Positions 9,674 through 30,653 of a stretch of DNA of 32,000 nt are shown here, piece by piece. Under the pieces are notes generated by a model. That model was given only the letters and a program-made list of their open reading frames with translations, was not told the DNA's origin and did not search any database. Every line of letters begins with the position of its first letter. Within the stretch, counting starts at the first letter, position 1. Made by a program: the position numbers and the translations under genes. The DNA comes from Pseudothioglobus sp. nBUS_23 (lineage in GTDB: Bacteria; Pseudomonadota; Gammaproteobacteria; PS1; Pseudothioglobaceae). Location: contig NZ_CP179200.1 of the NCBI RefSeq assembly GCF_051201565.1, forward strand, positions 60,001-92,000. The letters are read 5' to 3'.

Positions 9674-9705
9674 TGAAAAAGCCTTCCTTAAAGTAATGGA
9701 AGGCT
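9674..9705 (-). terminator. Rho-independent terminator of the DoxX gene
   Basis: On the minus strand: AGCCTTCC-attactttaa-GGAAGGCT followed by TTTTTC, about 15 nt after the DoxX stop. Confidence 0.6.
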
Positions 9706-9720
9706 AATAAAAAAAACTAA

Positions 9721-10086: not shown

Positions 10087-10153
10087 AATTTACTCCTATG
10101 ATTTATAGAAAAAACTCCCTAAAAAAAAGTCGTTTTATTTTTAATTAGCGCCT

Positions 10154-10417: not shown

Positions 10418-10438
10418 TTTTCTCCTTTATTTTGAATA

Positions 10439-10461
10439 GCAGCTCCTTGAACAGGAGCTGC
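10439..10461 (-). other. Intercistronic 9-bp stem-loop (GCAGCTCCT-5 nt-AGGAGCTGC)
   Basis: A perfect inverted repeat between the small Cys-rich ORF and the 10154-10417 gene. No U-run follows it on the transcribed strand. Confidence 0.5.
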
Positions 10462-10474
10462 CTGTGAAAAGACT

Positions 10475-10624
10475 TTAATTTTCACTTTTTTCAAACATCG
10501 CCGCTTTGTCAGCATCAGTTTTTGCCGCATACTCTTCTTCAGTTAACATATGCCATCCAATACAATCTCCAGTAGGTGATCTACCGCAACCACATGTACC
10601 ATTTTCTTTTTTAACGTTATCCAT
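10475..10624 (-). CDS. 49-aa Cys-rich peptide (hypothetical)
   Basis: MDNVKKENGTCGCGRSPTGDCIGWHMLTEEEYAAKTDADKAAMFEKSEN*. It is below the ORF-track size cut-off and co-oriented with the neighbouring genes. The opposite-strand track ORF 10506-10688 looks spurious. Confidence 0.35.
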   Translation of the reverse strand: MDNVKKENGTCGCGRSPTGDCIGWHMLTEEEYAAKTDADKAAMFEKSEN

Positions 10625-10729
10625 CATTTTTTCCTTTGAATTGTTAGATTATTGCCAGCTTTTGACTTCAGTGCTGGCGACTGATTAAATAACGCCTCTG
10701 CAGATTATTAGCGTTTAGTCATTGAAATA

Positions 10730-10751
10730 AAATTATAATCATTTATAATTT
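10730..10751. promoter_or_regulatory. Perfect 9-bp inverted repeat AAATTATAA-TCAT-TTATAATTT in the divergent LysR promoter region (candidate LysR box)
   Basis: It lies about 40 nt upstream of the LysR start. LysR regulators bind T-N11-A-type dyads in their own divergent promoters. AT-rich DNA makes chance palindromes more likely. Confidence 0.35.
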
Positions 10752-10790
10752 GCAATAAAGTCACTATTAAACAAATTACTATTACATATT

Positions 10791-11666
10791 ATGAAACAAT
10801 ACTCTTTAATCGAATTAGAAACTTATCAGGCTGTTGTTGAAGCCGGAAGCTTTAACCTAGCTGCCGACAGATTGAGCACAAGCGCTGCAACTGTGAGTCG
10901 TCGCATAAGCACCCTAGAATCAGCTTTAGGTGTTAGATTACTGAATCGTACGACTAGAAATATAAATCTAACAGAAGCTGGTGAGCAATATCTTGATGAT
11001 GTTAAAAATATCTTAGAAAGCGTAGAGATCTCAGAAGAAAGGATTGGGGAAGGTAAAGCAGAAGCAAAGGGTGAATTACGAATTGCTGCTCCACTTAGTT
11101 TTGGCATAAAACACTTATCTCCAGTACTACCATCATTCATGAAGAGCCATCCAAATATAATCATCAACTTGAAACTAGAAGACAGCCAGACTGATCTTCA
11201 AGCTGAAGGAATAGATATAGCGCTTCGAGTTACTCAAAATATTAAGGATTCATCCCTTATTGCAACTCCCTTATGCTCAATTCCCATAGTAATTTGCGCC
11301 TCACCAGACTATATCAATAAACATGGCAAACCTAAATCTATAAATGATATTCAAAAGTATAATTTTCTTGGATATAGCTTAGCATCGAATAACCTTAAAA
11401 CTCGACTTGGTTCAAATTCTGATCCTCGAATTGGCTTTGTGGCAAATAATGGTGATGTCATAAGGGAGGCTGCAATTAATGGTTTTGGCATTACTGCACT
11501 TCCATTATTCTTGATTGAAGACGATTTAAAAAATGGAAAATTAGTAACAATAATCGACAATCAAGTTAAACCTGAAACACTATATGCCGTTAGATTGTCT
11601 CGAAGGTTTACCCCAACAAAGGTCAAAGTGATGGTTGATTATTTAAGAGATACCTTTAAAGACTAA
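10791..11666 (+). CDS. LysR-family transcriptional regulator
   Basis: 291 aa. N-terminal wHTH (FNLAADRLSTSAATVSRRISTLESALGVRLLNRTTRNINLTEAG) plus a LysR substrate-binding domain. Confidence 0.9.
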   Translation: MKQYSLIELETYQAVVEAGSFNLAADRLSTSAATVSRRISTLESALGVRLLNRTTRNINLTEAGEQYLDDVKNILESVEISEERIGEGKAEAKGELRIAAPLSFGIKHLSPVLPSFMKSHPNIIINLKLEDSQTDLQAEGIDIALRVTQNIKDSSLIATPLCSIPIVICASPDYINKHGKPKSINDIQKYNFLGYSLASNNLKTRLGSNSDPRIGFVANNGDVIREAAINGFGITALPLFLIEDDLKNGKLVTIIDNQVKPETLYAVRLSRRFTPTKVKVMVDYLRDTFKD

Positions 11667-11843
11667 AAAACATTCAAAAAATAAACTTCTCGAGCAATTA
11701 ATCGATAAATTATGGCATTACTAAACTGAGTAATTTCTTTGACTTGTTTGAGATTTAAATATGACACTTTTCGTACTCCTTTGATGATTAAAAAAAGGAT
11801 ATTACCAACCTGGGTAAATTCTATTTTGGTTCAATGCTTTTTT

Positions 11844-11953
11844 ATCCCTCGCATATATATACTGACTTTGAAGGTACAGGGGAGCCCCTCTCGACATCGG
11901 AGATAGATATATACACCCTCCCTCACACATCAAACGAAATTTGGACTTATAAT
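11844..11953 (+). repeat. Intergenic cassette copy 2, ending in TATAAT (11948-11953) 6 nt before the CoiA-like ATG
   Basis: atccctcgcatatatatactgactttgaaggtacaGGGGagcccctctcgacatcggagatagatatatacaccctccctcacacatcaaacgaaatttggactTATAAT. Confidence 0.9.
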
Positions 11954-11959
11954 CCTTTT

Positions 11960-13039
11960 ATGAGATTCGCACTTTCAAATAATGAGCGTATTGAACCTAC
12001 CAAAGGAGCAAAGGGGGTCTGTCCTAGTTGTGGTTCTGAACTAGTTGCTAAGTGTGGCGAAATCAAAAGACATTATTGGTCGCATAAGAAGAAGTGTGAT
12101 GACCATTGGTGGGAGAATGAAACAGAGTGGCATCGCAATTGGAAGAATAACTTTCCTAAAGAATGGCAAGAGATAATCCAAAGAGATGAGAGTGGTGAGA
12201 AACATATTGCCGATGTTAAAACGAGTTCGGGTTGGACAATTGAATTTCAACATTCACCAATTTCTAAAGAAGAGCGCGACTCAAGAGATTACTTTTACAA
12301 TAAGCTGATATGGGTGGTTGATGGAACAAGACGCAAGACTGATATTAAGCAGTTTGAAAGTTTAGTTCATCACGCACATCCCCTCATTTATCCTGAATTT
12401 CCCAAAGATTACAGGTTAATTAGAGAATGGGGCTCTAGTCAGTCATTAGTATTTGTTGATTTTGGAGCTGATGAGCTATGGTTAATTAATAACAATGATT
12501 GTATTAGTGCTTTTTCAAGAAATTCTTTTGTTGAAATGATGAATGATTCTCGCTCAGATGAGGTTAATATAAAACTACTAGAGCCAATTCAAAAACAAAT
12601 TGATGAAATAAAGGCTGAACAAGAAAAGAATAGAAGAGAGCAAGAAGAAAAAGATAGGATTAGGGAGCAAGAACTCATTGAAGAAGATTTAAGAATAAGA
12701 AAAAAATATAACATGAAGGATGATGAAGAGTGGTTTGAAGGGTCGCTCGGAATTAAAATATTTAAGCGTTATGGAGAAAAGATTGTATATAGAAGACCTA
12801 AGCCAAAAATCCCATATGTCATAGGAATTTGTAGAAATAGATTTCATTATTTTGACACCAAGGTTGCCTCATCAATTCTAAATAACTATGAAGAGGTTAT
12901 GAAACAATTAGACTACACCGATGAACAAATTGAAGATGAGTTTGATATTAATGTGATACCCAAAACCATAGATGTAAAGAACTGGACTGAATGGAAAAAT
13001 CTAATGGAGCAATTGAAACAGAAAATTGGTAAAAAATAA
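11960..13039 (+). CDS. CoiA-like nuclease-family protein with a long charged / coiled-coil C-terminal extension
   Basis: The start is moved to MRFALSNNERIEP, because the track ORF reads through the cassette. CPSCGSELVAKCGEIKRHYWSHKK, EWHRNWKNNFP, HIADVKT and TIEFQHSPIS...LIWVVDG match the CoiA-like (competence protein CoiA) pattern. Confidence 0.6.
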   Translation: MRFALSNNERIEPTKGAKGVCPSCGSELVAKCGEIKRHYWSHKKKCDDHWWENETEWHRNWKNNFPKEWQEIIQRDESGEKHIADVKTSSGWTIEFQHSPISKEERDSRDYFYNKLIWVVDGTRRKTDIKQFESLVHHAHPLIYPEFPKDYRLIREWGSSQSLVFVDFGADELWLINNNDCISAFSRNSFVEMMNDSRSDEVNIKLLEPIQKQIDEIKAEQEKNRREQEEKDRIREQELIEEDLRIRKKYNMKDDEEWFEGSLGIKIFKRYGEKIVYRRPKPKIPYVIGICRNRFHYFDTKVASSILNNYEEVMKQLDYTDEQIEDEFDINVIPKTIDVKNWTEWKNLMEQLKQKIGKK

Positions 13040-13040
13040 A

Positions 13041-13078
13041 AAACGAAATTTGGACTTTAGTTCAAGTTGATATACAAT
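13041..13078 (+). repeat. Partial cassette (3' part only): aaacgaaatttggactttagttcaagttgatatacaat
   Basis: It matches the 3' end of cassette copies 1, 4 and 7 and sits directly upstream of the small secreted-protein gene. Confidence 0.75.
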
Positions 13079-13654: not shown

Positions 13655-13837
13655 TCATCTATTCCTATCGATCATTTTTTTAATAATGAATTCGATTATT
13701 TTGTTCTCAGACCAACGAGAAGTTCTTTCAGATAATTTAATCTGCTTTGGGAATTTATCCTCTTTCATAAGTCTATAAATCGTAGCAGTACTGAGTAGTG
13801 TTATTTCCTTTACTTGTTTCAATGTGAGTAGTCTCAT
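13655..13837 (-). CDS. alpA: AlpA-family phage/island transcriptional regulator (Xis-like HTH)
   Basis: The start is moved to MRLLTLKQVKEITLLSTATIYRLMKEDKFPKQIKLSERTSRWSENKIIEFI, with an AGGAGA SD. This is the classic AlpA/HTH_17 pattern. Confidence 0.8.
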   Translation of the reverse strand: MRLLTLKQVKEITLLSTATIYRLMKEDKFPKQIKLSERTSRWSENKIIEFIIKKMIDRNR

Positions 13838-13916
13838 AGTTCTCCTTTTTGTTATGGAAAAAAATGGAAGAGTGTAAAGTAATAATCCTTTCATATGGGC
13901 GTTTGACGGCAATTCA

Positions 13917-13963
13917 CAGTACACTTTTCCAATACACAATAAAGTGTGTATCGAGTGTGTATT
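13917..13963. promoter_or_regulatory. Cluster of (G/A)TACAC(A) motifs in both orientations upstream of alpA
   Basis: cagtacac..aatacacaa..gtgtgtat..gtgtgtatt. The core is the same as in the tandem repeats at 8825-8845 and 18451-18471. Confidence 0.35.
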
Positions 13964-14076
13964 GAGTGGGGTACGGAAAATTTCCATTCAGCGTATCTTT
14001 AGCACCATGTCTTTCCAATGGCGGAAAGATAGGCGCTTCAAAAGAAGCATTTTAAAATCCCTATAAAGGAGATTAG

Positions 14077-14292
14077 ATGGAAAGATTAAAGACGTTGTTA
14101 GATACACACCAAGTAGCTGAGAAGTTTGGTATTGAGTCAAAGACCTTGGCAAATGCGAGAAGTACAGGAGTTGGAATTGGTTCGATTCCTTTCGTGAAGT
14201 TTGGGCAAAACGGAGCAGTCCGTTATAGAGAGTCCGATGTATTAGATTACATTGAGGCCAATACTTTTAAACACACAGGAGAAGTAAAGTAA
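14077..14292 (+). CDS. Excisionase/MerR-type helix-turn-helix DNA-binding protein
   Basis: 71 aa with an AAGGAG SD. LLDTHQVAEKFGIESKTLANARSTG...AVRYRESDVLDYIE fits the HTH_17-type pattern. Confidence 0.6.
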   Translation: MERLKTLLDTHQVAEKFGIESKTLANARSTGVGIGSIPFVKFGQNGAVRYRESDVLDYIEANTFKHTGEVK

Positions 14293-14606
14293 TGAGTAGT
14301 AATACAAAAAAACCCCCTCAGTCGGCTAGGACTCAGGGGGCTTACAGTAAAACTTTCAGCAAGAATGATACCATACTCAACGCCCTTGTTGAAGGCTCTC
14401 TAACGAGGTTTGACGCAGAGCAGTTAGGTGACCATTGTCTACCATCAACTATATCGGCTCTTTCAAATCAGCATGGTTTGGAATTTCCTCGAAGATGGAT
14501 TAAAGTTCCAAATCGCTTTGGTGGTGAGACTCTTTGTAAGGAGTACACAACTAGCGATGAAGACAAAATTTACATCAACAAGTACTTGGAGGTGTTGGAT
14601 GGCTAG
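14292..14606 (+). CDS. Island-associated winged-helix protein (HTH_39-like)
   Basis: 104 aa. TAATG overlap with the upstream gene. ILNALVEGSLTRFDAEQLGDHCLPSTISALSNQHGLEFPRRWIKVPNRFGGETLCKEY resembles the helix-turn-helix proteins that precede primases in integrative islands. Confidence 0.5.
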   Translation: MSSNTKKPPQSARTQGAYSKTFSKNDTILNALVEGSLTRFDAEQLGDHCLPSTISALSNQHGLEFPRRWIKVPNRFGGETLCKEYTTSDEDKIYINKYLEVLDG

Positions 14607-15741
14607 TATGAGTAGAGCAATGTTGGAGCGTGGCATAACGCCACCTTCCGCTTTTGTTTATGATGGTAAGATTAAAAGGTTCAAGAATGAGGGCGATACC
14701 AAAGCTAATAGTTGGTATGTTGGCTTTCAGGATGGAGACTTTCAGTCAGGTGCTTTTGGCTGTTGGAAGTTAGATATTCACGAGGACTTTTGTAATCGTG
14801 ATACATCGTCTTTCACTCCTGAAGAAAAGAAAGCCTTTGCCATAAAGCAAGAGGAAGTAAGACAGCTTAAAGCCAAAGAGAAAGAAGATAAACATCAACA
14901 GGCTGAGAGAGATGTCAATGAAAGATGGGCAAAAATCGATCAAGTTGATTCACATCAATATCTTTCAGATAAAGGTGTCAAGTCTTATGGCTTAAAGGTT
15001 GAAAAGGACAATTTGGTTGTTCCTATCTTTAATGCCGATGGAGAGTTGGTCAATCTTCAAACCATTTCACCAAGTGGTGGTAAATATTTTGCTAAAGGTG
15101 GAAAGATAGAAGGCTGTTTCTACTTGATTGGTGATGTTGATGAACATCTTATTATCGTAGAAGGAATGTCAACTGGAGCCAGTATCCACGAGGCTACTAA
15201 GTTGGCTGTGGTTGTTTCATTTAATGCGGGTAATCTTTTGCCTGTAGCTAAAGAAATGACTTCCTTATACCCTCATGCTTCAATCATTGTTGCGGGTGAT
15301 GATGACCAGTTCAATGATGTCAATACAGGTCTTATAAAAGCCTCTGAGACAGCGAAGCATGTTGGCGGATTTGTTTGTTTTCCTCACTTTGAAGGGTTAA
15401 ACAAGAGTCAAAGATTGACAGACTTTAACGACCTTCATCAAGAGCAAGGTTTGATGGAAGTTAAGAAGCAAATCTATAAGGCAATTCATAGTAACGCTAG
15501 AACACCACAACATGAATCTGTAATTGTCTATGGTAGTTTTTTCAAAGCCATGAAACATCTTGATGGCTCTGAATTAAGACTTGTGTTTGACGCTATGATG
15601 AACTACGGCTTGTATGAAAAACAATCTAAGTTGCCTGACAAACTTCAATCTTTATTTGAATTAATAAAGCCTCAGATTGATGCCAATATTAAAAGGCGCA
15701 TCAATTCTAAGAAAGGTGGAAGAAAGCCAAATAAAGAATAG
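14599..15741 (+). CDS. Phage/plasmid-type DNA primase (COG4643-like N-domain + Toprim), no helicase domain
   Basis: The start is moved to MASMSRAMLERGITPP, with GGAGG 6 nt upstream and an 8-nt overlap with the previous ORF. YDGKIKRFKNEGDTKANSWY...GAFGCWK is followed by Toprim motifs LIIVEGMSTGASIHEAT and IIVAGDDD. Confidence 0.78.
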   Translation: MASMSRAMLERGITPPSAFVYDGKIKRFKNEGDTKANSWYVGFQDGDFQSGAFGCWKLDIHEDFCNRDTSSFTPEEKKAFAIKQEEVRQLKAKEKEDKHQQAERDVNERWAKIDQVDSHQYLSDKGVKSYGLKVEKDNLVVPIFNADGELVNLQTISPSGGKYFAKGGKIEGCFYLIGDVDEHLIIVEGMSTGASIHEATKLAVVVSFNAGNLLPVAKEMTSLYPHASIIVAGDDDQFNDVNTGLIKASETAKHVGGFVCFPHFEGLNKSQRLTDFNDLHQEQGLMEVKKQIYKAIHSNARTPQHESVIVYGSFFKAMKHLDGSELRLVFDAMMNYGLYEKQSKLPDKLQSLFELIKPQIDANIKRRINSKKGGRKPNKE

Positions 15742-15746
15742 TCTAT

Positions 15747-15796
15747 AACCAACGGTTAGCTAATTGTTAAACCAACGGTTAGCTAACTGTTAAACC
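15747..15796 (+). repeat. Two and a bit tandem 23-bp units AACCAACGGTTAGCTAA(T/C)TGTTA
   Basis: It starts 6 nt after the primase stop. The unit core AAACCAACGGTTA is the reverse complement of TAACCGTTGGTTT, which is found in both island arms (8932-8944, 18803-18815). Confidence 0.85.
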
Positions 15797-15797
15797 T

Positions 15798-15849
15798 AAA
15801 GTAAAGGTAAAGGTTAAAGCAAAAGTAAAAGTAAAAGTAAAAGATAAAG
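15798..15849 (+). repeat. A-rich hexamer microsatellite, (GTAAAA)n-like
   Basis: aaagtaaaggtaaaggttaaagcaaaagtaaaagtaaaagtaaaagataaag. Confidence 0.85.
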
Positions 15850-15914
15850 TTTAGTAAATACCATAAAGAAATATTTGGTGTTTTATCTTGTTGTAATCTT
15901 GGTGTTTTCGGAGT

Positions 15915-16005
15915 CCATAAAAAGGGAGTTTAGTGACACCATAAAAAGGGGTTTTCGTACGCCATAAAAAAGGGAGTTTTCGGAGACCATAAAAAAAGGC
16001 CTATG
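15915..16005 (+). repeat. Four iteron-like direct repeats CCATAAAAA(A)GGG(A)GTTT spaced 23-25 bp (candidate replication origin)
   Basis: Repeat starts are at 15915, 15939, 15962 and 15987. They lie between the primase and the int operon and next to the A-rich tract. Confidence 0.55.
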
Positions 16006-17205
16006 TCATGGATATTTAAGGTGTCTCCTGTCCGTATTATTGTAGCCTTCTAACAAGTAGGTAACGACTTCTTCAATCACAGCATCTTGTCTCGTTGTCC
16101 TGTAATCTTTTGGATGTCCTTTGTAGTCAACATGGATGTAATGTTCAAGGTTAGCCCATTTGATTTGGTTACTCGATTCCTCTGTGTGGTATTCAGTAGG
16201 AATTGTGTTGACATGAAGCATTCTTACTAAATGACTATATGCTCCAGTTTCTTTAAGCCAAATCCATTTACCTTCAAGGTCACCATTGATACAATCTTTT
16301 TCAATAAGTTGGTCATATAACATCTTGGAAAACTCAGCCTTAAAGGGTGCCTCTTCAACATCTCTCAAGGCAGTATTTTCTTTAATATATCCTAAGCCTT
16401 TTGCCCACCCAATAAACTGCTCCTTGTCTATGTCGATAGGTACAACAATGTGATTATGAAGTTCGTTTTCCGACATATTAGAACGCTCTTGACGGCTGAG
16501 TTGTCTTTTTTTGGTTTTGAACTCTCTTTCAACCCACTTCCATTCATCATAGTCTCTACCACTTTCGCCTAGCCCACCTTTTTCTATGAACCCATCTTCA
16601 TCTTTAAAATTAGTGGCATTCATATCCCATTGCGCAATATATCTTTTTTCAATATCAGGACAGAGACCTAGAAGAATATAAAAACCTTCATGTTGATATA
16701 GGGTTTGATGTCTATCAAGAAGACTTAAATCAAAAGAGGCCTCTTTGAAAACTTTTAATAATCTTTCAGAAGTGCTCGTTCTCCTATCCATCCTTTGCCA
16801 GTTATCGATGTTGTAAATGTCTTCGATATATAAGGCTCGTTTATCTTTCTTTGGATTGATAAAGTGAGGGTTCTTTTTCTTGTGCTCAAAATCCCTCAAT
16901 CTTTCAGCAAGGGATGTAAATGAAGGCATATCATCATTCTCAAATTCTCTTGGGTCTTTGATTATTAAATCTTCTTTGACCCAACCATGGCTAATATAAA
17001 CAACTTCCCATGATTCTTGAGTTAAGTCCTTATGGGGTTCTAACTCAGTATCTAATTCAAGCAACTGCTCAAATAGAGGAACTTCATCGACACATATTTT
17101 ATGAAGTCTTTTTCTCTCTTTACGAGAGGCTTTGACCTGTGCCTCAAACTCCTTAATGAGTTCTTGTTTTCTGTCCTTTGCTTTTTGGGTGAACTGATAC
17201 TTCAT
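16006..17205 (-). CDS. 399-aa protein of unknown function, translationally coupled to the integrase
   Basis: The start is moved to MKYQFTQKAKDRK, whose ATG overlaps the integrase TGA (ATGA). I recognise no motif. It has a charged N-terminal helix and is Trp/His-rich. Confidence 0.6.
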   Translation of the reverse strand: MKYQFTQKAKDRKQELIKEFEAQVKASRKERKRLHKICVDEVPLFEQLLELDTELEPHKDLTQESWEVVYISHGWVKEDLIIKDPREFENDDMPSFTSLAERLRDFEHKKKNPHFINPKKDKRALYIEDIYNIDNWQRMDRRTSTSERLLKVFKEASFDLSLLDRHQTLYQHEGFYILLGLCPDIEKRYIAQWDMNATNFKDEDGFIEKGGLGESGRDYDEWKWVEREFKTKKRQLSRQERSNMSENELHNHIVVPIDIDKEQFIGWAKGLGYIKENTALRDVEEAPFKAEFSKMLYDQLIEKDCINGDLEGKWIWLKETGAYSHLVRMLHVNTIPTEYHTEESSNQIKWANLEHYIHVDYKGHPKDYRTTRQDAVIEEVVTYLLEGYNNTDRRHLKYP

Positions 17206-18440
17206 TTGATGTGACTCCATAGTTCTGCCTCGATCAAATTCATAGGTTCCCTGAGGTCTTCTAATTGAATGATTATGTAGCGCCCTGTAATGTCTTTTGG
17301 GTCTTTGTGATTGATGAGTTTCTTTAGGTTGTATGTTGAGAAAACAACTCTACTTGCTGTAGTTTCAAAAGTCCTTCTAAGGTCGTGTAAGTTGAAATAA
17401 CAACCCGCTAAATCTCTTGCTCTAGCCATTTGTCTTTTTTGTGGCGGTGACAAATGAGTGTTTGGTTTCTGACCTTGGAATACATATGGATTGTCAGAGC
17501 CATCTTTACGCCTATCGAGTATCTCTAATAAAGTTTTAGTCAATGGAAGGGCGTGTGTTTCGTGGTTCTTGGTATCTTCAATAACAAAAGAATTGTCTCT
17601 AAAGTCTATGTCTTCCCACTTGAGTTCTAATGCTTCATTTCTTCTTAATCCTGTAAACAAAATAAAGATAAACAAGTCTCTAACAACCTCGGCACTATTC
17701 TTCTTAACTGAGTTCTTCTCATGCTCAGGTAGTGACATAATTCCTTCATACCATTGCTTTAATTCGTAGTTATTAACTAGGCCTTGTCTAACCTTTTCTC
17801 TATTCCAAGACTTGTTATGAGAGATTCTTTGAACAGGATTGTGAATAAAGAGGGGTTCTCCTTTGCTATCTTCATATTGACCATGAGCATAATTAAACAA
17901 AGCCCTTAGAACTCTCATTGTAGTGTTTGCTCTTGTTGGTGATTCTTTGAACTTACCAAGTCCATAGGTGATGTCTCTATGTCTTTGCTCCACCATGTTG
18001 CGTGTAATATCTGCTATCGGTTTATGTTTCCAATCACCTAGATATATATTTAGAGCAGACCTATAGTTTTCAACTGTACTTTCCTCTATCTTAGTTCCTC
18101 GGCTTCTAATGTAATCATTGAAGACTTGTTGAAGGGTAATGCTTTGCTTAGAAACTAAATCACCTTTAACTTTATTTGGGTCAATGCCTTTATCGATATT
18201 AGAGAATGTTCCCTGTGCTTGTGTCCTAGCCTGTGGAATTGTCATTGAAGGATAGTAGCCTAGAGTGACATAAGAAGCGTTTTTCTTTCCCTTTAGTCTT
18301 TTGCGAACTATAAAAGCCTTAACCCCTAGATGGGTGACTCTTAACGATAAGCCTTTAACTTGTGTGTCACCGTAAGCAACTTGCCCATTGCTAGGTATTT
18401 CAATGTTGTCTAGTGCTTTGCGTGTAAAGTTAATCTTCAT
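17202..18440 (-). CDS. int: Tyrosine site-specific integrase, P4-type (N-terminal DUF4102 arm-binding domain)
   Basis: The start is moved to MKINFTRKALDNIEIPSNGQVAYGDTQVKGLSLRVTHLGVKAFIVRKR, the DUF4102 pattern. The C-terminal catalytic region has TGLRRNEALELKWEDID, HALPL and HDLRRTF. It is adjacent to the partial tRNA copy. Confidence 0.92.
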   Translation of the reverse strand: MKINFTRKALDNIEIPSNGQVAYGDTQVKGLSLRVTHLGVKAFIVRKRLKGKKNASYVTLGYYPSMTIPQARTQAQGTFSNIDKGIDPNKVKGDLVSKQSITLQQVFNDYIRSRGTKIEESTVENYRSALNIYLGDWKHKPIADITRNMVEQRHRDITYGLGKFKESPTRANTTMRVLRALFNYAHGQYEDSKGEPLFIHNPVQRISHNKSWNREKVRQGLVNNYELKQWYEGIMSLPEHEKNSVKKNSAEVVRDLFIFILFTGLRRNEALELKWEDIDFRDNSFVIEDTKNHETHALPLTKTLLEILDRRKDGSDNPYVFQGQKPNTHLSPPQKRQMARARDLAGCYFNLHDLRRTFETTASRVVFSTYNLKKLINHKDPKDITGRYIIIQLEDLREPMNLIEAELWSHIK

Positions 18441-18450
18441 GATACTAACT

Positions 18451-18471
18451 CCAGTACACATCCAGTACACA
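18451..18471 (+). promoter_or_regulatory. Tandem CCAGTACACA / TCCAGTACACA repeat 11-31 nt upstream of the int start (candidate arm-type / autoregulatory site)
   Basis: It matches 8825-8845 in the opposite arm. Two further direct repeats GGATGTNTATGGA lie at 18502-18514 and 18546-18558. Confidence 0.4.
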
Positions 18472-18603
18472 GATGTGGGTTATATTGAGTTATACTAAAA
18501 TGGATGTCTATGGAAGTGTTCATCTCTTTAAACCTATGTATAATAGGATGTTTATGGACATACCAGTATTATATAGGAAATAAAGGATAATAAAGTAAAT
18601 TAA

Positions 18604-18649
18604 ATTCATAATGCTGGGGTCGGTGGTTCAAGTCCACCCATAACCACCA
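18604..18649 (+). repeat. attR core: displaced copy of the tRNA-Met 3' half
   Basis: 46/46 identity with 8733-8778. There is no 5' half of a tRNA upstream. Confidence 0.85.
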
Positions 18650-18861
18650 TATCCCATAAGGCTTTAAGCGATTTCACTTAAATCTAAATATTAGACTGGT
18701 ACTCAACTGGTACTCAAAGAAACGATTTTCGATACCTTTTCTACACCTCGCTTAAGTCCAAATAATTAGATAAATAATAATAGTTAAATAACTAGAGACT
18801 AGTAACCGTTGGTTTGAGGTGTATATAACCGATGGTTTAGATAAATACTATGAAAAAAGTA

Positions 18862-18984
18862 CCATCCCTCGCATATATATACTGACTTTGAAGGTACGGG
18901 GGGAGCCCCTCTCGACATCGGAGATAGATATATACACCCTCCCTCACACATCAAACGAAATTTGGACTCTTTTTGAGCTATAAT
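18862..18984 (+). repeat. Intergenic cassette copy 3, ending in TATAAT (18979-18984), upstream of gene A
   Basis: It is part of the 234-bp block 18735-18968, which is near-identical to 8864-9098. Confidence 0.9.
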
Positions 18985-19017
18985 TTAGCCTTTCTAAATT
19001 TCTATTCACACCCCCTA

Positions 19018-20922
19018 ATGAAGAAAATTTTATTTATTTTTGTGCTGTCTTTGTATTCAATTCAAGGATTTGCATCATCATGCCCTGATGGCAGTGAGCC
19101 AATCAAGAGTGTTTCTGATGATGGAAGTTATTATGTTTTTAACTGTGTAAATAATAACGTTCTCTCAGGCAAACCCTACACGAATTTATCTGAAAACGAT
19201 GGTCCTTGGTCAGGTCCTATGATTGAGATAACGGAGAATACATTAATTAATGGTCCAACTCCAGGCAGGTATTCACCATTTTTGAAAGATACTGGTCGTC
19301 AACGAGGTGGACCCCAACATTGGACTGGAGATTTCAATAATGATGGCTACGTTGATTTCATTTATGGTGGAGCCGTTGATGATGCGAAATATAATTTAAT
19401 ATACTCAAACAGAAAAGGAATCAACAATGCTACAGACATCGATGATAATGACCCAGTAGGGCAATTCTATTCGTGTGGCAAGAAGGCTTGTATTACTCCA
19501 AATATGATGCCTGAATTGTTTCTTGGGCATGCTGATGGAATTTGGAAAAGAAGTTCTTATCTTCTTATCGATAAGCGCAAAGATGCAGGCATACGTGGTG
19601 GCAAGCCCGCTGTTGCTGACTTTAATGGTGACGGTATCCAAGACTTCTGGTTTTATGATGATAAAGCAGACGAGAGCGGCCACGCATCTTCTAACAAAGT
19701 TCGTTGGAGAGGCTTTCGTGACAGTTACTACTTGTCTCAATCTAATGGTACCTGGTTAGAAAGTTCTGATACACATCTAAACAAAGTCATTAATGATTTT
19801 GGCCATGGCGGTCAAGCAGGGGATATCAATGGTGACGGTTGGATAGATATGTTATCTACAACAGGTGGTAAACATGTCGATTGTTGGATAAATATTGGCG
19901 GCGGTGTAATGAAATACCGCAAATGTATCGATGGTGCGGGGGCATATATTGTTGAACTTGCTGATTTCGACGGCGATGGTGATTTAGACATGTACACTCA
20001 GCAACAAGAAAACGCAAGTCAACCTGGACACCCAAAGATATCCTGTAACGATGGTAATGGTTGGTTCCGTGTATGTAAAGATATGTCAGTATTCACTGAT
20101 GGAGATTACGATTGGGTTGGCTCAGTCGGTGCACGTTCATGGGACTTTGACAATGATGGTGACCAAGATATCATACTTATGCGTTTTAGAAACTTGTATG
20201 TTGGGGTTGCAATGGAGATTAAAGAAAATCTCGGTAATATGAACTTCAAGTCAGATTTGACTATTCTTTGGGACCCTATGACAAAAGAAGAGCATGCTGA
20301 GTTAAAAACTGAGATTAATTGGGCAAATAAGTACTTTACATTGAAACTACATGATGTAAATGATGATGGCTTAATGGATGTTATATTTTATGATGGCAAA
20401 TCTGGCAAGTATGACAATGCAATCTGGTTAAACAAAGGAAATCTCAAGTTTGAACTGATTAACAAGAACCAGCCAGACAATCCTATGGTACAGATCAAAA
20501 CTCAACAGACAAACTATAAAGAAACTGCAGGTGAAGAAATAAAACAATTAATTGAAAATTATAATGGTGAAGTGGTTAGAGTTGGTGAAGTGGCTAATGA
20601 AGAACAACCAAAAGAATTATCTTTTCTTGAATCACAAATCAAATTATTAACCGACCAAAGAAGATTACAGGTCTGTAGCGCCGTCTTTAGTGAGTTGTTT
20701 GGAGGTGAATACTACAAAAGAACAAATAAGGACACTTACTTTTTTGTCTCTCTTGATAGTAATGGTAAGGATTGTCATTATGAGTGGTCTACTAATGAGA
20801 TGACAGCATTCGAACAATGCGAAGAGAATACAAAGGCTATTGGAAAATGTACTATCTATGCCATTGGCGATACTGCTGTTTGGGGGAATCCCAAACTGTA
20901 TGAAAATTTAAGAAGTCAATAA
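19018..20922 (+). CDS. Secreted FG-GAP/VCBS-type beta-propeller protein with N-terminal Cys-loop tag and C-terminal four-Cys module (array gene A)
   Basis: The start is moved to MKKILFIFVLSLYSIQGFASSCPDGSEPIKSVSDDGSYYVFNC. Repeated Ca-binding-like blades: DFNNDGYVDF, DFNGDGIQDF, DINGDGWIDM, DFDGDGDLDM, DFDNDGDQDI, DVNDDGLMDV. The shared C-terminal module is at about 20632-20919. Confidence 0.75.
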   Translation: MKKILFIFVLSLYSIQGFASSCPDGSEPIKSVSDDGSYYVFNCVNNNVLSGKPYTNLSENDGPWSGPMIEITENTLINGPTPGRYSPFLKDTGRQRGGPQHWTGDFNNDGYVDFIYGGAVDDAKYNLIYSNRKGINNATDIDDNDPVGQFYSCGKKACITPNMMPELFLGHADGIWKRSSYLLIDKRKDAGIRGGKPAVADFNGDGIQDFWFYDDKADESGHASSNKVRWRGFRDSYYLSQSNGTWLESSDTHLNKVINDFGHGGQAGDINGDGWIDMLSTTGGKHVDCWINIGGGVMKYRKCIDGAGAYIVELADFDGDGDLDMYTQQQENASQPGHPKISCNDGNGWFRVCKDMSVFTDGDYDWVGSVGARSWDFDNDGDQDIILMRFRNLYVGVAMEIKENLGNMNFKSDLTILWDPMTKEEHAELKTEINWANKYFTLKLHDVNDDGLMDVIFYDGKSGKYDNAIWLNKGNLKFELINKNQPDNPMVQIKTQQTNYKETAGEEIKQLIENYNGEVVRVGEVANEEQPKELSFLESQIKLLTDQRRLQVCSAVFSELFGGEYYKRTNKDTYFFVSLDSNGKDCHYEWSTNEMTAFEQCEENTKAIGKCTIYAIGDTAVWGNPKLYENLRSQ

Positions 20923-20924: not shown

Positions 20925-21046
20925 ATTCCTTCGCATATATATACTGACTTTGAGGCACGGGGGGAGCCCCTCTCGACATCGGAGATAGATATATACACCC
21001 TCACTCACACATCAAACGAAATTTGGACTTTAGTCCAAGTTGACAT
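20925..21046 (+). repeat. Intergenic cassette copy 4 (TTGGACTTTAGTCCAA-GTTGACA subtype)
   Basis: attccttcgcatatatatactgactttgaggcacGGGGGGagcccctctcgacatcggagatagatatatacaccctcactcacacatcaaacgaaatttggactttagtccaagttgaca. Confidence 0.9.
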
Positions 21047-21112
21047 ATATCTAATTATTTAAATTTAGCTATGGTATTCTAAATCTAATCCCATTTAAAC
21101 CTTAATACTTCT

Positions 21113-22948: not shown

Positions 22949-22951
22949 AGA

Positions 22952-23075
22952 CCATCCTTGGCATATTTATTTAGACTTTGAAGGTACGGGGGGAGCCCCT
23001 CTTGACATCGTGGATAGATATATACACCTTCCCTCACACATCAAACGAAATTTGGATTTCTATTTGAACTATAAT
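22952..23075 (+). repeat. Intergenic cassette copy 5, ending in TATAAT (23070-23075) 6 nt before the gene C ATG
   Basis: ccatccttggcatatttatttagactttgaaggtacGGGGGGagcccctcttgacatcgtggatagatatatacaccttccctcacacatcaaacgaaatttggatttctatttgaacTATAAT. Confidence 0.9.
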
Positions 23076-23081
23076 TCAATT

Positions 23082-25169
23082 ATGAAAAAACTATTCCTAC
23101 TTTTAATTCTATCCTTTTTCTCAGCTCAAAGTTATGCTGGGTCGTGCCCAGATGGCAGTGAGCCAGTCAAGAGTATTTCTGCGGATGGTACTTACTTTGT
23201 ATTTAACTGCGGCGGTGCTAATGAAGCACCTTCTTCTAATGCTAATTCATCTAATACCAAGTCAAACTCGAATCAAGCCTATCAATCTTTTCCAGTGCAT
23301 GAATTTGCAAAATCCCCACTTCGTGATTTGAAGGTTCCTGAAAACTGGAAACTATTCAAAGACCCCAGTGAGTTAGATCTTTTTCATGAGCGATTCAAAG
23401 GCCCAGTTCATGAAAATCAACCTATTAATTCGTGGAAGATGCAAAATTATGTGGATGATTGTGAACGCGGTATTTCTGAATTTGATCAAAACTTTCGTTT
23501 GCTTGAAGAGAATTTGGCCAGAAGTTTTATAAGATGCGCAAGAGTATTCACTCTTCGTCATTTTCGAGATCGAGCTGAAGGTATAAAGACCTTTGAAAGA
23601 ATACTTCTGTCCTGGGCAAAAACAAAGCCCGTCATCTATGCAGCAAACTCAAATGATGAAAATATATTTGGTAGTCAGGCGTATGCAGCGTCTATGCTTA
23701 TGGGAGATTTTGCATCTTTTTACGCTGTTTATTATGATGATTTTGATTTCACTCAAGAGCAGCGCCAATCTGTAGAGGAATACTTAAGTGATTGGCTAAT
23801 CAATCATGATCTTACCCTTCCTGGATTCCCAATCTGTAACCTCAAGGATATAAAGCAATTCGAAGTTGGTGGTGCCAATACAACTAGAGCTGCAAACTAT
23901 TGCGGAAGTAACCGCTGGCGTATGGGAATAGGTGCTGTCTATCTCGGTCTTAGAACGGGTAACCAAGAGCTATTTACAGCAGGTAATAGGCATATTGAAA
24001 TAAATTTAGCTACAATTGATAAAGATGGTATTAATGCAGTTTGGGCTGGAAAAGGAGTCTTGGCTCTGAGCTATTTAAGACAATTTCCAGAGGTCCTAAC
24101 GCTGCTTGCAGTGGCCTACGAATCGATCGGCTATGACTTTTATGAACACCAATTGCCTCGTGGAAAAAAAATTCATGAGGTCTATGAGGCATTATTTGAT
24201 TTTATTTATCATCCTGAGAAACTGAATAAGTATGCACATGGAACTCGTTACTATGGAGGCAAGGGAAATCCAGGGGTTATTGACGTCTATGAATTCGATA
24301 AACTTCCATTAAGTGAAAAATGGAACCGTGAAATGATTTCCCCAGAAATACTAGCAGCCGAGTCCAAGGGTTATGTTATTCGATATCGTCCTGATTTAAT
24401 GGACAAGATTGAATACAAAAAAACATGGGGGTATAACCCCAATAAGCAAGCAGAATGGAAATGGGGTGAGTATGAGCACTGGCAGGAACATGTTTCAAGA
24501 TTTGTTAATATTTCAGGTTTAGCAATTTATGAGGCGTTTAATCAAAATGTTTCAAAGTTAATCATCGAGGAACAAAAAAAATTAGAACAAGATCAAGAAA
24601 AAAACAGGCTTCGATTAAAGAACAATGCTGAATCATTAAAGGTTAAAAAGTCTCAAGAGCAAGAACAGCTTTTAGCAGAAATTCCAATTTATGATATGAA
24701 TGATGAGACTCTAATTTTAAATCTTGACCTAGCTGAATTTGTCGAAATAAGTCCGCCAAAAAAACAAAACAAAAATTCTGGATTGGAGACACACAAAGCA
24801 GAAATAAGTTGCGAGTTAAGTATGGGCAGTTTTCAAGTTCCTGAGTTTAGGCCATTGGCTTTTAAATATGTTTTATATAATGAGAATAGATTATCAATCA
24901 ATGTCGGTGATTTGAATGCGCCTGAGTTTAACCCGTTCAAAAGACATCGAGCCTCTCTTCAAAAGGAATGTGGCCTTGAGTTAATGAATGAATATGACTG
25001 GATGAGTTTTGTCAGCGAAACGACCAATATGAAGAGTGCTAAAAACCAACAATGTCATTATGATTATTTCAAGGATGCAAATGACGAAGAGGCTTGGAAG
25101 TTGTTTCAGGCTGTCTTAGGTGGGACGGCTTCTATACTGAATTATCTAGAAGAAAATGTTGAGCGATGA
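23082..25169 (+). CDS. Secreted protein: N-tag + Ser/Asn-rich linker + all-alpha AlgL/alginate-lyase-like core + coiled coil + C-terminal module 2 (array gene C)
   Basis: The start is moved to MKKLFLLLILSFFSAQSYAGSCPDGSEPVKSISADGTYFVFNC. The core motifs (YCGSNRWRMGIGAVYLGL...DKDGINAVWAGKGVLALSYLRQFPEVL) are spaced as in the PL5-type NNHSYW...R..RAL.YHNYALP. The catalytic-site equivalents are not all conserved. Confidence 0.6.
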   Translation: MKKLFLLLILSFFSAQSYAGSCPDGSEPVKSISADGTYFVFNCGGANEAPSSNANSSNTKSNSNQAYQSFPVHEFAKSPLRDLKVPENWKLFKDPSELDLFHERFKGPVHENQPINSWKMQNYVDDCERGISEFDQNFRLLEENLARSFIRCARVFTLRHFRDRAEGIKTFERILLSWAKTKPVIYAANSNDENIFGSQAYAASMLMGDFASFYAVYYDDFDFTQEQRQSVEEYLSDWLINHDLTLPGFPICNLKDIKQFEVGGANTTRAANYCGSNRWRMGIGAVYLGLRTGNQELFTAGNRHIEINLATIDKDGINAVWAGKGVLALSYLRQFPEVLTLLAVAYESIGYDFYEHQLPRGKKIHEVYEALFDFIYHPEKLNKYAHGTRYYGGKGNPGVIDVYEFDKLPLSEKWNREMISPEILAAESKGYVIRYRPDLMDKIEYKKTWGYNPNKQAEWKWGEYEHWQEHVSRFVNISGLAIYEAFNQNVSKLIIEEQKKLEQDQEKNRLRLKNNAESLKVKKSQEQEQLLAEIPIYDMNDETLILNLDLAEFVEISPPKKQNKNSGLETHKAEISCELSMGSFQVPEFRPLAFKYVLYNENRLSINVGDLNAPEFNPFKRHRASLQKECGLELMNEYDWMSFVSETTNMKSAKNQQCHYDYFKDANDEEAWKLFQAVLGGTASILNYLEENVER

Positions 25170-25200: not shown

Positions 25201-25255
25201 TATAAACCCTCCCTCACACATCAAACGAAATTTGGATTTCTATTTGAGCTATAAT
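25201..25255 (+). repeat. Intergenic cassette copy 6, short variant lacking the GC core, ending in TATAAT (25250-25255)
   Basis: tataaaccctccctcacacatcaaacgaaatttggatttctatttgagcTATAAT. Confidence 0.85.
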
Positions 25256-25289
25256 TAAATTTTTATCTACCAATCCTCCTTTTTGTCTA

Positions 25290-27236
25290 ATGAAAAAAAT
25301 ATTATTTATTTTTGTGCTGTCTTTGTATTCAATTCAAGGATTTGCTTCAAATACTTATGACTCTTTTCCAGTTCATGAGTTTGCAAAATCTCCACTTCGT
25401 GATTTAAAAGTAACTGAAAACTGGGAACTATTCAAAGACCCCAGTGAGTTAGATCTTCTTCATGAGAGATTCAAAGGTCCAGTTCACGAAAAATACTCTA
25501 TTGGGTGGTGGAATATGCACCCTTATGTAGATGATTGTGAACGAGCAATTTCTGAATGGGATAAAAGCTGGCTTTCTCATAAAGGTCAGGGGCTTTCAAA
25601 TGGAATTCAATCAAGCTTTATCAGGTGTGCTACTTTTTTTACGCACCAGCATTTCCGTAATCGTGATGAGGGGATTAAGGTATTTGAGAGAATCCTTTTG
25701 TCTTGGGCTAAAAATGAGCCAGTTGCTTATCCTACTTCTAATAATTTAAAGATGTGGGAACACGGCGCTTTAGGATATGCTTCTACCATGCTTGTTGGTG
25801 ATTTTGCATCGTTCTATGCTGTCTATTATGATGATTTTGATTTTACGCAAGATCAGCGTCAAGCAGTTGAGAGCTATCTGAGTGATTGGCTCATAAACCA
25901 TGATATTGATCCACCTAGAATGTATCAAAGATGTGACCTTGAAGATCTGACAAAGTTTGAATTTATAGGGAATAATTTTATGTCTATAGATTACTGCGGC
26001 AGTAATAGGTGGCGTTTAGCTCTAGGGGCAGTCTACCTTGGACTAAAGACTGGCAATCAAAAACTTTTTACTGCCGGAAATCGCCACCTTGAAATAGCCT
26101 TAGCAGTAATTGATAAAGATGGCATTTACGCCCCTTGGGCTAGAAAAGGCGCACTGGCTCTGAGTTATCAAAGGCAGTTACCAGAAGTATTAACCCTACT
26201 AGCAGTTGCATATGAATCTATTGGCTATGATTTTTATGAACATCAACTTCCTCATGGGAAAAAAATTCATGAGGTCTATGACGCTTTCTTTGATTTCATT
26301 TATCATCCTGAAAAGCTCAATAAATATGCTTTTGGAATCCCAGACTATGGGGATTTAGATGTTCACGAATTTGATAAGTTGCCACTTGAAGAAAAGTGGC
26401 ATCGTGAGTATATTAACCCTAAAGTATTGGCGGCGCAATCAAAAGGGTATGTCCTAAGGTATCGTCCTGATTTAATGAGTATGATCGACTACTCTAAAAA
26501 ATGGGGCAAGTTTTGGGACAATTATATATCGGTTTTTGTTAATATCAGTGGTGTAGCAGTATATGAGGCATTTAATCAAAATGTTAGTAATTTTCTCCAA
26601 GAACAGGATGAAAAACTGAAAGAGAAACAAGAAGAAAATAGGCTTCGATTAAAGAAAAATGCGGAAGCAATAAAGGCTAAAAAAGATCAAGAGCAAGAAC
26701 AACTAGAGACTAAAAAAGCTCAAGAGCAAGAACAACTTTTAGCAGAAATTCCAATTTATGACATGAATGATGAAGCCCTAATTTTAAACCTTGACCAAGC
26801 TGAATTTTTCGAAATAAGTCCGCCTAACCAACAAAATAAAAATGTTGGGTGGGAGACACACAAGGCAGAAATTTATGGTGAATTGAGACTTGAGAATTTT
26901 CACATTCCTAAATTTAGACCGCTGGCTTTTAAATTCGATGTCCTTAATGAGAGTAGATTGTCAATTAATGTAGGTGAACTCAATGCGCCTGAATTTAGAC
27001 CTTTTACAAGACATCAGGCTTCCCTTCAAAAGGAGTGTGGACTGGGACTAATGAACGAATATGATTGGATGAGTTTTGTCAGCGAAACGACCAATATGAA
27101 GAGTGCTAAAAACCAACAATGTCATTATGATTATTTCAAAGAAGCAAATGATGAAGAAGCTTGGAAATTATTCCAGGCTGTCCTAGGTGGTACGGATTCT
27201 ACACTGAATTATCTAGAAGAAAATGTTGAGCGATGA
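25290..27236 (+). CDS. Paralogue of gene C lacking the Cys-loop tag (array gene D)
   Basis: MKKILFIFVLSLYSIQGFASNTYDSFPVHEFAKSPLRDLKV. It is collinear with gene C from SFPVHEF onward. The leader nucleotides are nearly identical to those of gene A. Confidence 0.6.
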   Translation: MKKILFIFVLSLYSIQGFASNTYDSFPVHEFAKSPLRDLKVTENWELFKDPSELDLLHERFKGPVHEKYSIGWWNMHPYVDDCERAISEWDKSWLSHKGQGLSNGIQSSFIRCATFFTHQHFRNRDEGIKVFERILLSWAKNEPVAYPTSNNLKMWEHGALGYASTMLVGDFASFYAVYYDDFDFTQDQRQAVESYLSDWLINHDIDPPRMYQRCDLEDLTKFEFIGNNFMSIDYCGSNRWRLALGAVYLGLKTGNQKLFTAGNRHLEIALAVIDKDGIYAPWARKGALALSYQRQLPEVLTLLAVAYESIGYDFYEHQLPHGKKIHEVYDAFFDFIYHPEKLNKYAFGIPDYGDLDVHEFDKLPLEEKWHREYINPKVLAAQSKGYVLRYRPDLMSMIDYSKKWGKFWDNYISVFVNISGVAVYEAFNQNVSNFLQEQDEKLKEKQEENRLRLKKNAEAIKAKKDQEQEQLETKKAQEQEQLLAEIPIYDMNDEALILNLDQAEFFEISPPNQQNKNVGWETHKAEIYGELRLENFHIPKFRPLAFKFDVLNESRLSINVGELNAPEFRPFTRHQASLQKECGLGLMNEYDWMSFVSETTNMKSAKNQQCHYDYFKEANDEEAWKLFQAVLGGTDSTLNYLEENVER

Positions 27237-27248: not shown

Positions 27249-27320
27249 CATATCTATTCATTAAATTTATACACCCTCCATCACACATCAAACGAAATTT
27301 GGACTTTAGTCCAAGTTGAC
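27249..27320 (+). repeat. Intergenic cassette copy 7, short variant, TTGGACTTTAGTCCAA-GTTGACA subtype
   Basis: gcatatctattcattaaatttatacaccctccatcacacatcaaacgaaatttggactttagtccaagttgac. Confidence 0.85.
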
Positions 27321-27388
27321 ATATATCTGATTATTTGAATTTAACCATGGTATTCTGAACCTAATCCAATTTGAACCTTAATACTTTT

Positions 27389-30650: not shown

Positions 30651-30653
30651 GTG

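Follow-up and report, generated by a model that had tools for sequence, protein, structure and literature searches.

Here we describe an intergenic repeat in a 32,000-nt stretch of the genome of Pseudothioglobus sp. nBUS_23 (the window; contig NZ_CP179200.1, positions 60,001 to 92,000), whose conserved core, a box of about 23-34 bp, lies at the borders of gene modules that recur beside different neighbours in related genomes. We propose that the box serves as a recombination joint, linking gene modules into cassette arrays in the SUP05/Arctic96BD-19 clade (Thioglobaceae), a reading to which we give an even chance. That part of it which assigns the joint to a dedicated enzyme is more tentative, and we regard it as possible rather than probable.

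The element is modular, with an optional 5' module (M1), the box (CCCTCCCTCACACATCA-AACGAAA-TTTGGACTTT) and an optional 3' module (M3), of which M1 and M3 are accessories and the box is the conserved unit. Position-wise conservation sets the core at 34 nt (CCCTCCCTCACACATCAAACGAAATTTGGACTTT). M1 is an imperfect palindrome of ~75 nt that contains a G-run, has CCNTCCCTCGCA in front and carries CCNTCCCTC at either end; it is found in about a quarter of copies, some of them 5'-truncated, and ~75% of family members lack it. M3, present in ~36% of copies, has the form TTTAGTTCAAGTTGAYW-TAYAAT-N6-ATGAARAAACT. In the window, the 22-mer CACACATCAAACGAAATTTGGA matches eight times, on the + strand every time, and not once in 100 shuffles; in total the window has eight full boxes and one half box, each of them on the + strand, against none expected by chance (Table 1). 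An initial annotation of the window had described nine copies of a composite repeat ahead of unrelated genes, and all nine are present where it placed them or within a few bases, along with its G-run lengths (8, 4, 6, 6, 6 and 5), its two alternative endings and a good -10 hexamer in the 3' module. Of the invariant box that it reported, only 23 nt (TCACACATCAAACGAAATTTGGA) are invariant in the window, whereas the C-rich stretch before these varies (CCCTCACTC, CCTTCCCTC, CCCTCCATC), and the copies at 25201 and 27249 that it called short or partial are complete boxes from which the palindromic module is absent. The palindromic half occurs in six window copies, five with ≤3 mismatches and one, at 22952, more diverged.

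A scan of one genome per species with the core 21-mer found it in 99 genome blocks, nearly all from Candidatus (Ca.) Thioglobus, Ca. Pseudothioglobus or SUP05/Arctic96BD-19 single-amplified genomes (SAGs) and metagenome-assembled genomes (MAGs), with the same consensus across genera. The few short MAG contigs that bear off-clade labels (Dehalococcoidales, Hellea, Flavobacteriales, euryarchaeote and similar) are probably mis-binned, because their content is Thioglobaceae-like. Clade-wide, 646 kb of related loci hold 229 boxes at ≤9 mismatches, while shuffled sequence holds none; the exact core is present in only 131 of these boxes and the typical copy differs from it by 0-3 bases. Just one of 213 boxes lies inside an open reading frame (ORF), on which all gene calls are based. 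Viral contigs gave no matches, which leaves a phage origin unsupported, and full-text searching of the literature turned up no description of this repeat.

Neighbouring boxes point in the same direction in 117 of 118 pairs, the exception being an inverted dimer, and this uniform orientation extends over contigs of up to 205 kb. With each locus oriented by its boxes, a box is present in 33% of tandem co-oriented gaps (74/226), 42% of convergent gaps (39/92) and 37% of divergent gaps (33/90), and in 7% of gaps between two opposite-strand genes (7/101). Opposite-strand ORFs make up 211 of 567 (35% of coding length), and none has a box of its own orientation. The direction of a box follows the array and not the adjoining gene. 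For many kb at a stretch, boxes also occur one per gap among ordinary metabolic genes, and they mostly start 6-40 nt past a co-oriented stop codon. If the box is a joint between modules, orientation would be uniform because recombination takes place between direct repeats, convergent and divergent gaps would be occupied equally because a reversed module makes one of each, and boxes between two opposite-strand genes would be few because such genes share one module. The only within-contig exception to uniform orientation was seen on a single-cell scaffold, where two loci 30 kb apart (KB889813.1 1-8000 and 32001-40000; L020 and L074) hold the same three boxes and modules in opposite orientation; this inverted duplicate is probably an amplification chimera.

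After adjacent blocks were merged, 128 box-to-box segments were counted, with lengths of 166-8425 nt and a median length of 1.2 kb. A single ORF is present in 82 of them (64%) and two in 25, and within segments 138 ORFs are co-oriented and 59 anti-oriented with the boxes. Twenty-six segments were found again in another contig at 72-99% identity; both flanks could be tested in 20 pairs, among which both neighbours were unrelated in 15, one was common in 4 and both were common in 1. When segment pairs were aligned with 500 nt of additional flank, homology in most pairs set in between -5 and +7 nt of the left box start and ended between -2 and +12 nt of the right box end. The four-gene module at 9101-11915, for example, occurs in Ca. 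Pseudothioglobus singularis AH-700-L02 at 95.9% identity and with different neighbours, being flanked there by a DMT-transporter module and an FG-GAP module and not by tRNA-Met. The copy at 8991, previously taken for an orphan, is the left border of this module, which is box-bounded again in the second genome. The initial annotation was also right that the repeat links the integrated element to the array, for a different reason than it gave: the region from 9.1 to 13.0 kb itself consists of box-bounded modules.

Mismatches within the box are distributed unevenly. In the left boxes of shared modules (23 pairs), 115 lie to the right of CACATCA against 186 to its left; the part right of CACATCA travels with the module and the left part does not. 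Several left arms have shrunk to TCACACATCA, right-half boxes begin at AACGAAA (at 13041 in the window and in locus L030), and left-half boxes stop at CACATCA (L064/L099). Furthermore, a DMT/EamA transporter module opens with a fragment resembling a tRNA 3' end, GAGAGGATTCAAATCCTCTCGTCCGACCA, which is joined directly to ...CACATCA in five contigs, one from a SAG and four from metagenomes, that differ in their upstream neighbours and M1 variants. At the 7-nt centre, 151 of 161 boxes read AACGAAA or depart from it by 1-2 nt, and the remaining 10 have a discrete GAGAGGA-type centre, with no intermediates, that equals the first bases of GAGAGGATTCAAATCCTCTCGTCCGACCA and is linked neither to the upstream nor to the downstream module. 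Taken together, the sequences suggest that breakpoints cluster at two points 7 nt apart, between box positions 17 and 18 (17/18) and between 24 and 25 (24/25). Perfect or near-perfect palindromic box dimers were observed at three places (L006 6446-6500, L087 7263-7310 and L058 387-445), two of them centred on AAA/TTT, that is on 24/25, and the third with a 19-bp stem formed by an extra inverted left arm. The fragment that opens the DMT module consists of a T-arm-like hairpin followed by GTCCGACCA, and ARAGORN predicts no tRNA there.

In the mechanism that we favour, an array would alternate boxes with modules, every box facing the same way and each module usually being one gene, of either strand. 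The upstream module would own the left arm of the box (...TCACACATCA) and the downstream module the right arm (TTTGGAC...), with the 7-bp centre AACGAAA lying between the two preferred exchange points. Recombination between two direct boxes would excise the intervening module as a putative circle carrying one box, and recombination of such a circle, or of other incoming DNA, with a resident box would insert it, such that boxes stay direct while modules are shuffled among contexts and genomes. M1 would be the 3' tail of some upstream modules, possibly acting as a transcript stop, and M3 the 5' head of many downstream modules, most likely a promoter of the sigma-70 type, from which a leaderless mRNA encoding a signal-peptide protein would be made. 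Single-gene modules, many with a leaderless promoter head of their own, could in this manner be excised, captured and exchanged across genera. The catalyst may be a site-specific enzyme making staggered cuts at the box rather than RecA acting on short homology. In its fullest form, which we put forward tentatively, this would be an undescribed integron-analogous system in which a clade-encoded recombinase makes a 7-bp staggered cut in an asymmetric double-stranded site of ~27 bp (TCACACATCA, AACGAAA, TTTGGAC), modules are exchanged across genera, and arrays are seeded at tRNA-linked islands and travel as cargo of P4-type integrative elements.

Several observations weigh against this proposal. 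No recombinase was found for it: a phmmer search of all loci with the window integrase returned only five tyrosine recombinases, every one an island integrase beside a tRNA or tmRNA gene, and near most arrays there is none. By inspection, the box lacks the dyad symmetry of a simple tyrosine- or serine-recombinase core site; compared with core sites of the lambda/Xer/Cre type, it has breakpoints 7 nt apart and a swappable 7-nt centre, and its arms are not inverted repeats. Neither circular junctions nor empty sites (flanks joined without a box) were seen among the box-containing blocks that were looked at. The loci are box-containing by selection and derive mostly from MAGs and SAGs, where repeats can disturb assembly, and the single complete genome retrieved had one block with the exact core. 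The clustering of breakpoints is suggestive and falls short of proof, because other truncations lie at 29 (L035), about 25 (L060) and about 23 (L072) and because the half-box search was framed at position 17. Finally, RecA acting on a repeat of 27-120 bp after transformation could yield the same mosaic, the same arm linkage and the same direct orientation.

This last point leads to the alternative of a passive homology anchor, in which a conserved intergenic repeat, retained perhaps for some role in expression, lets RecA recombination and natural transformation shuffle genes with no dedicated enzyme and no defined cleavage points. Recombination between direct repeats would be expected to produce the mosaic, the arm linkage and the direct orientation alike, and inverted copies would be purged because they invert chromosome segments. 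The scarcity of nearby recombinases, the absence of dyad symmetry, the breakpoints outside 17/18 and 24/25, and the presence of a CoiA-like competence gene within the array fit it as well. What makes us doubt it is the detail of the joints: a core of 23-34 bp, and in several joints a shared left arm of ~10 nt, is a short substrate for RecA; at one phosphodiester, 17/18, there are four or five independent illegitimate joints; two palindromic dimers are centred at 24/25; the swap of a 7-nt centre identical to the start of a tRNA-like fragment is hard to obtain through homology-driven crossovers; and the consensus is unchanged across genera. We consider this alternative somewhat unlikely.

The 3' module brings in another explanation. 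At 9115-9129, 11948-11962, 13073-13087 and 23070-23084 in the window, and in many other loci, an ATG comes exactly 6 nt behind TAYAAT with no Shine-Dalgarno sequence, a layout that suggests leaderless mRNAs for signal-peptide proteins (MKKLL...). In 30 M3 copies the ATG lies 6 nt past the -10 and many of the ORFs open with MKKLL, while about half of M3-started ORFs end after 6-45 codons; the promoter-plus-start head therefore outlasts the gene that is replaced behind it. Whereas the initial annotation saw no TTGACA-like -35, the CTTTAGTCCAAGTTGACATATA ending places the box's TTGGAC, a TTG-type -35, exactly 17 nt before TATAAT, TACAAT or TATATC, and the combination TTGGAC, 17 nt, TAYAAT occurs in 53 of 78 M3-type copies. 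M3 is enriched ahead of co-oriented genes (26 of 91) relative to opposite-strand genes (3 of 30). It is plausible that M3 is a promoter with a leaderless start.

These features, together with an A-rich AAACGAAAT at the position of a proximal UP subsite (by inspection), agree with a shared promoter cassette in which the box is an activator, UP-element or alternative-sigma site that, with TATAAT, drives mostly secreted-protein genes, and in which the 5' palindrome terminates the upstream transcript. From the box to the nearest strong -10, however, the distance varies: M3 copies have 17 nt, a sub-family carrying a 5-nt insertion has 22 nt, the type-1 copies of the window have 12 nt and the copy at 11916 has about 0, values that are out of helical phase and the last two of which depart from sigma-70 spacing; an activator site at a fixed distance is ruled out by this variation. 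Convergent gaps, where no promoter is needed, are boxed, seven boxes lie antisense between opposite-strand genes, no box points the same way as the ~35% of genes on the opposite strand, the genes downstream have ordinary metabolic functions of all kinds, about half of M3 starts open dead ORFs, and a generic promoter scan found no enrichment at boxes. Variable spacing, convergent-gap boxes and array-bound orientation speak against both a shared activator or UP site and a simple terminator. An activator or alternative-sigma site shared by the whole gene set, as the initial annotation suggested, is not supported, its interpretation as a whole finding partial support, and we judge the promoter cassette as a whole to be unlikely.

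Evidence for a function of the element in RNA was sought in M1 and in the box. Single M1-bearing copies show no greater folding stability than shuffled sequences (z -0.5 to -1.4), RNAalifold over 46 copies gives no consensus fold (-0.6 kcal/mol), and the window hairpin, when imposed on the alignment, is 70.8% paired (shuffles, 69.8%) and contains a single pair that clearly covaries. A conserved RNA hairpin as the defining feature is ruled out by these three tests, and the 34-nt box shows no self-complementarity and no hairpin. An intrinsic terminator scan found nothing at M1 on the + strand, where M1 has no U-tract, and on the - strand its sole find was a weak hairpin of 6 bp, with a T-rich tail, in two copies of the M3 type. 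Rfam at its gathering threshold matched only tRNA-Met in the window, and a permissive search of 18600-23200 gave chance-level matches off the boxes. Of the earlier suggestion that the 5' half is a transcript-end or processing structure, the imperfect palindrome stands, while the lack of a U-tract and of a consensus fold leaves the function weakly supported. That the element might act at the RNA level (as a 3' untranslated region, a C-rich Rho-loading site, an insulator or a small RNA cotranscribed with the upstream gene) would suit its usual position 6-40 nt past a co-oriented stop codon, its C-rich and G-poor composition, and the TTGGAC-TAAA-GTCCAA with a T-rich tail that M3-type copies form on the - strand. 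It is highly improbable to us, given that no Rfam family matches at either threshold, that neither a consensus fold nor convincing covariation emerges, that the box is equally common in divergent gaps with no co-oriented gene upstream, and that its orientation is independent of the local direction of transcription.

A selfish mobile element, either MITE-like (miniature inverted-repeat transposable element) or REP-like (repetitive extragenic palindrome), or a single-strand derivative of the HUH/IS200-IS605 type, inserting into intergenic DNA in one orientation relative to replication and devoid of host function, would account for the many copies, their intergenic confinement, an optional palindromic module that includes 5'-truncated forms, CCNTCCCTC at both M1 ends, and a uniform orientation over up to 205 kb such as single-strand transposons show. 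Alignments, however, reveal neither terminal inverted repeats nor target duplications at the box, the 34-nt core has no hairpin, no transposase was found, and among box-containing blocks there were no empty sites. Third-position GC skew is symmetric between co- and anti-oriented genes and thus holds no strand signal, and tRNA genes are co-oriented with the boxes in five loci and anti-oriented in three; rRNA, dnaA and ribosomal-protein markers are absent from the loci, and the polarity of the boxes may or may not follow the replication strand in the manner of KOPS-, Chi- or IS200-like sequences. Simple insertion, moreover, does not explain whole genes that move as units beside unrelated neighbours. 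We regard a selfish origin as quite improbable.

Among described systems, the arrays most resemble those of sedentary chromosomal integrons and CALINs (clusters of attC sites without an integrase gene), in that mostly single-gene modules alternate with a repeated one-directional site, genes are mostly but not always co-oriented, modules occur in varied contexts, the site varies in length between conserved ends and, as in CALINs, no integrase need be adjacent. An attC site, in contrast, has R''/L''-L'/R' boxes in an imperfect palindrome and folds in its single-stranded form, whereas here the box is non-palindromic and 23-34 bp long, ~75% of sites have no hairpin at all, the module border falls mid-site, and many modules carry their own M3 head. 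The box has no self-complementarity, and full copies do not fold above shuffles; the RYYYAAC...GTTRRRY pair is absent, ATCAAAC and GTTGAYA resembling these motifs, by inspection, only in box-plus-M3 copies. Homology of shared modules ends at the box, ahead of GTTGAYA, and breakpoints lie mid-box, unlike the crossover at the attC core site. No IntI-type integrase was seen among the tyrosine recombinases that phmmer found in the loci with the window integrase.

The pdif (XerC/D-site) modules of Acinetobacter plasmids are likewise bounded by short sites (28 bp), occur in many contexts and have no adjacent integrase, a host recombinase being presumed. While pdif sites consist of a dyad of XerC arm, 6 bp and XerD arm in alternating orientation, the box has no dyad and no similarity to dif and is always direct, and the arrays here are chromosomal. 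The tycheposon and tRNA-island cargo arrays of marine bacteria and P4-type tRNA-integrating islands resemble the window in having a flexible island that starts at a tRNA gene (here tRNA-Met), strain-variable cargo, a partial tRNA repeat, AlpA, a primase and an integrase of the P4 type, and the elements of the window and of locus L008 carry the P'-arm, M1 and box beside the att core. The repeats of such islands are, however, partial tRNA (att) copies, whereas the box is separate, is dissimilar to the tRNA-Met core, and occurs also in many arrays with no tRNA or integrase nearby. Neisserial repeats (dRS3/NIME, Correia and "minimal mobile elements"), REP/BIME elements and putative mobile promoters are also clade-specific intergenic mosaics with optional modules, possible outward promoters and hot spots of gene exchange between conserved flanks. 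These repeats are palindromic or inverted-ended, occur in both orientations and are not found one per gene, while the box is asymmetric, strictly direct and placed on module borders to within a few bases. A classification as REP, BIME or MITE is also at odds with an asymmetric core, an orientation ratio of 117:1 and the lack of inverted termini and duplications, M1 alone being palindromic. Inspection revealed no convincing likeness to the Tn3 inverted repeat, dif, the loxP/FRT architecture, or sigma-54, sigma-E, CRP/FNR or IHF sites.

SUP05/Arctic96BD-19 bacteria rank with the most abundant gammaproteobacteria of the ocean, sulfur-oxidising and heterotrophic. Their strain-level variation in gene content is large, and to our knowledge no mechanism for it is known. 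A box at the exact borders of exchangeable single-gene modules would give this flexible genome a concrete mechanism, and it would serve as a sequence tag for harvesting cassettes from metagenomes. Were a dedicated enzyme involved, it would represent a second, structurally different answer to the problem that integrons solve (to capture, stockpile and reshuffle genes), and a possible recombination tool with a programmable 7-bp centre. Even on the more modest reading of a homology anchor with a portable leaderless promoter, the element shows how a streamlined genome arranges gene exchange and why assemblies break. Many MAG and SAG contigs stop within a few dozen bases of a box (e.g. L002, L003, L010, L027, L029, L044, L073 and L078); the repeat evidently breaks short-read assemblies, and the flexible arrays of the clade are likely under-represented in MAGs.

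Table 1. Box copies and neighbouring features of the window, followed by the fusion sites of the DMT/EamA module in other loci. Coordinates are in nt; G8, G6, G5 and G4 denote the G-run.
Feature	Position	Strand	Details
tRNA-Met	8702..8778	+	
Copy 1	8990..9129	+	M1 8990-9066 (G8); box 9067-9100; M3 with TATAAT 9115-9120
Copy 1, downstream	ATG 9127	+	vestigial 12-codon ORF; following genes on - strand
Four-gene module	9101..11915		three - strand genes including DoxX_2, plus LysR; box-bounded
Copy 2	11844..11962	+	M1 11844-11915 (G4); box 11916-11949; TATAAT 11948-11953; CoiA_N gene ATG 11960
Right-half box AACGAAATTTGGACTTT	13041..13057	+	abuts stop codon of CoiA-like gene; breakpoint at box position 17/18
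M3 behind right-half box	to 13087	+	TACAAT 13073-13078; ATG 13085
P4-type integrative module	13655..18649		within one box-to-box interval
AlpA	13655-13987	-	
Toprim primase	14428-15741	+	
Integrase (Arm-DNA-bind_3)	17202-18470	-	
tRNA-Met 3' remnant	18604-18649		46 nt
Focal copy, M1	18861..18936	+	optional imperfect palindrome, G6; 3' of tRNA-Met remnant and spacer
Focal copy, core box	18937..18970	+	left arm CCCTCCCTCACACATCA; centre AACGAAA; right arm TTTGGACTCT
Focal copy, type-1 ending	18971..19020	+	TATAAT 18979-18984; gene ATG 19018; TTGGAC-to--10 gap only 12 nt
Copy 4	20925..21051	+	M1 20925-20997 (G6); box 20998-21031; gene ATG 21113
Copy 4, ending	21046-21051	+	M3-type; TATATC, 17 nt past TTGGAC
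Copy 5	22951..23084	+	M1 22951-23026 (G6); box 23027-23060; TATAAT 23070-23075; ATG 23082 (-10 plus 6 nt)
Copy 6	25207..25292	+	box only (25207-25240); TATAAT 25250-25255; ATG 25290
Copy 6, upstream spacing	ORF end 25169		stop codon 38 nt before box start
Copy 7	27274..27327	+	box only (27274-27307); M3-type ending, TATATC 27322-27327
Copy 8	30653..30808	+	M1 30653-30727 (G5); box 30728-30761; TATAAT 30771-30776; ATG 30806
DMT fusion, L090	~1800	reverse	
DMT fusion, L102	821		
DMT fusion, L103	384		
DMT fusion, L104	1779		
DMT fusion, L105	186		

The hypervariable array begins ~290 nt 3' of tRNA-Met in seven genomes, in which the order coaE, tRNA-Met, ~290 nt, M1, box is kept and gene content diverges from the first box on. 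A direct repeat of ~365 bp (8733-9100 and 18604-18970) runs in the window from the anticodon loop of tRNA-Met through the box and includes the tRNA 3' end, a tandem 7-mer pair, M1 and the box, with identity ending straight after TTTGGAC. The tandem 7-mers (GTACACA twice on the left, GTACTCA twice on the right) resemble arm-type sites of an integrase. The repeat brackets the region from 9.1 to 18.6 kb, with its box-bounded modules and the P4-type module, and L008 shows the same arrangement. At 15919-15995 in the P4-type module, a 23-25-nt unit (AAAAAGGGAGTTTNNNGANACCATAAAAA) is repeated three times in tandem between the primase gene and the following - strand gene, and looks iteron-like.

A 401-aa ORF listed at 11834-13039 runs through M1 and the box, so that its start at 11834 is a read-through artefact, and the true start of this CoiA_N-domain gene is most likely the ATG at 11960. 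The same gene occurs in L098 behind a Rieske-type oxygenase gene, in one module and with no integrase nearby. Downstream of the P4-type module, a tandem family of secreted proteins occupies 19018-20922, 21113-22948, 23082-25169, 25290-27236, 27389-28789 and 28827-30650. Most members share an N-terminal motif, GSCPDGSEPVKSISADGTYFVFNC, after the signal peptide, the exception being 25290-27236, and their bodies differ, with FG-GAP_3 repeats (confirmed by Pfam in 21113 and 28827), a polysaccharide-lyase domain, and two bodies with no Pfam match. The FG-GAP members have a common C-terminal region of ~100 aa, and this family also stands first in the tRNA-Met arrays of other genomes.

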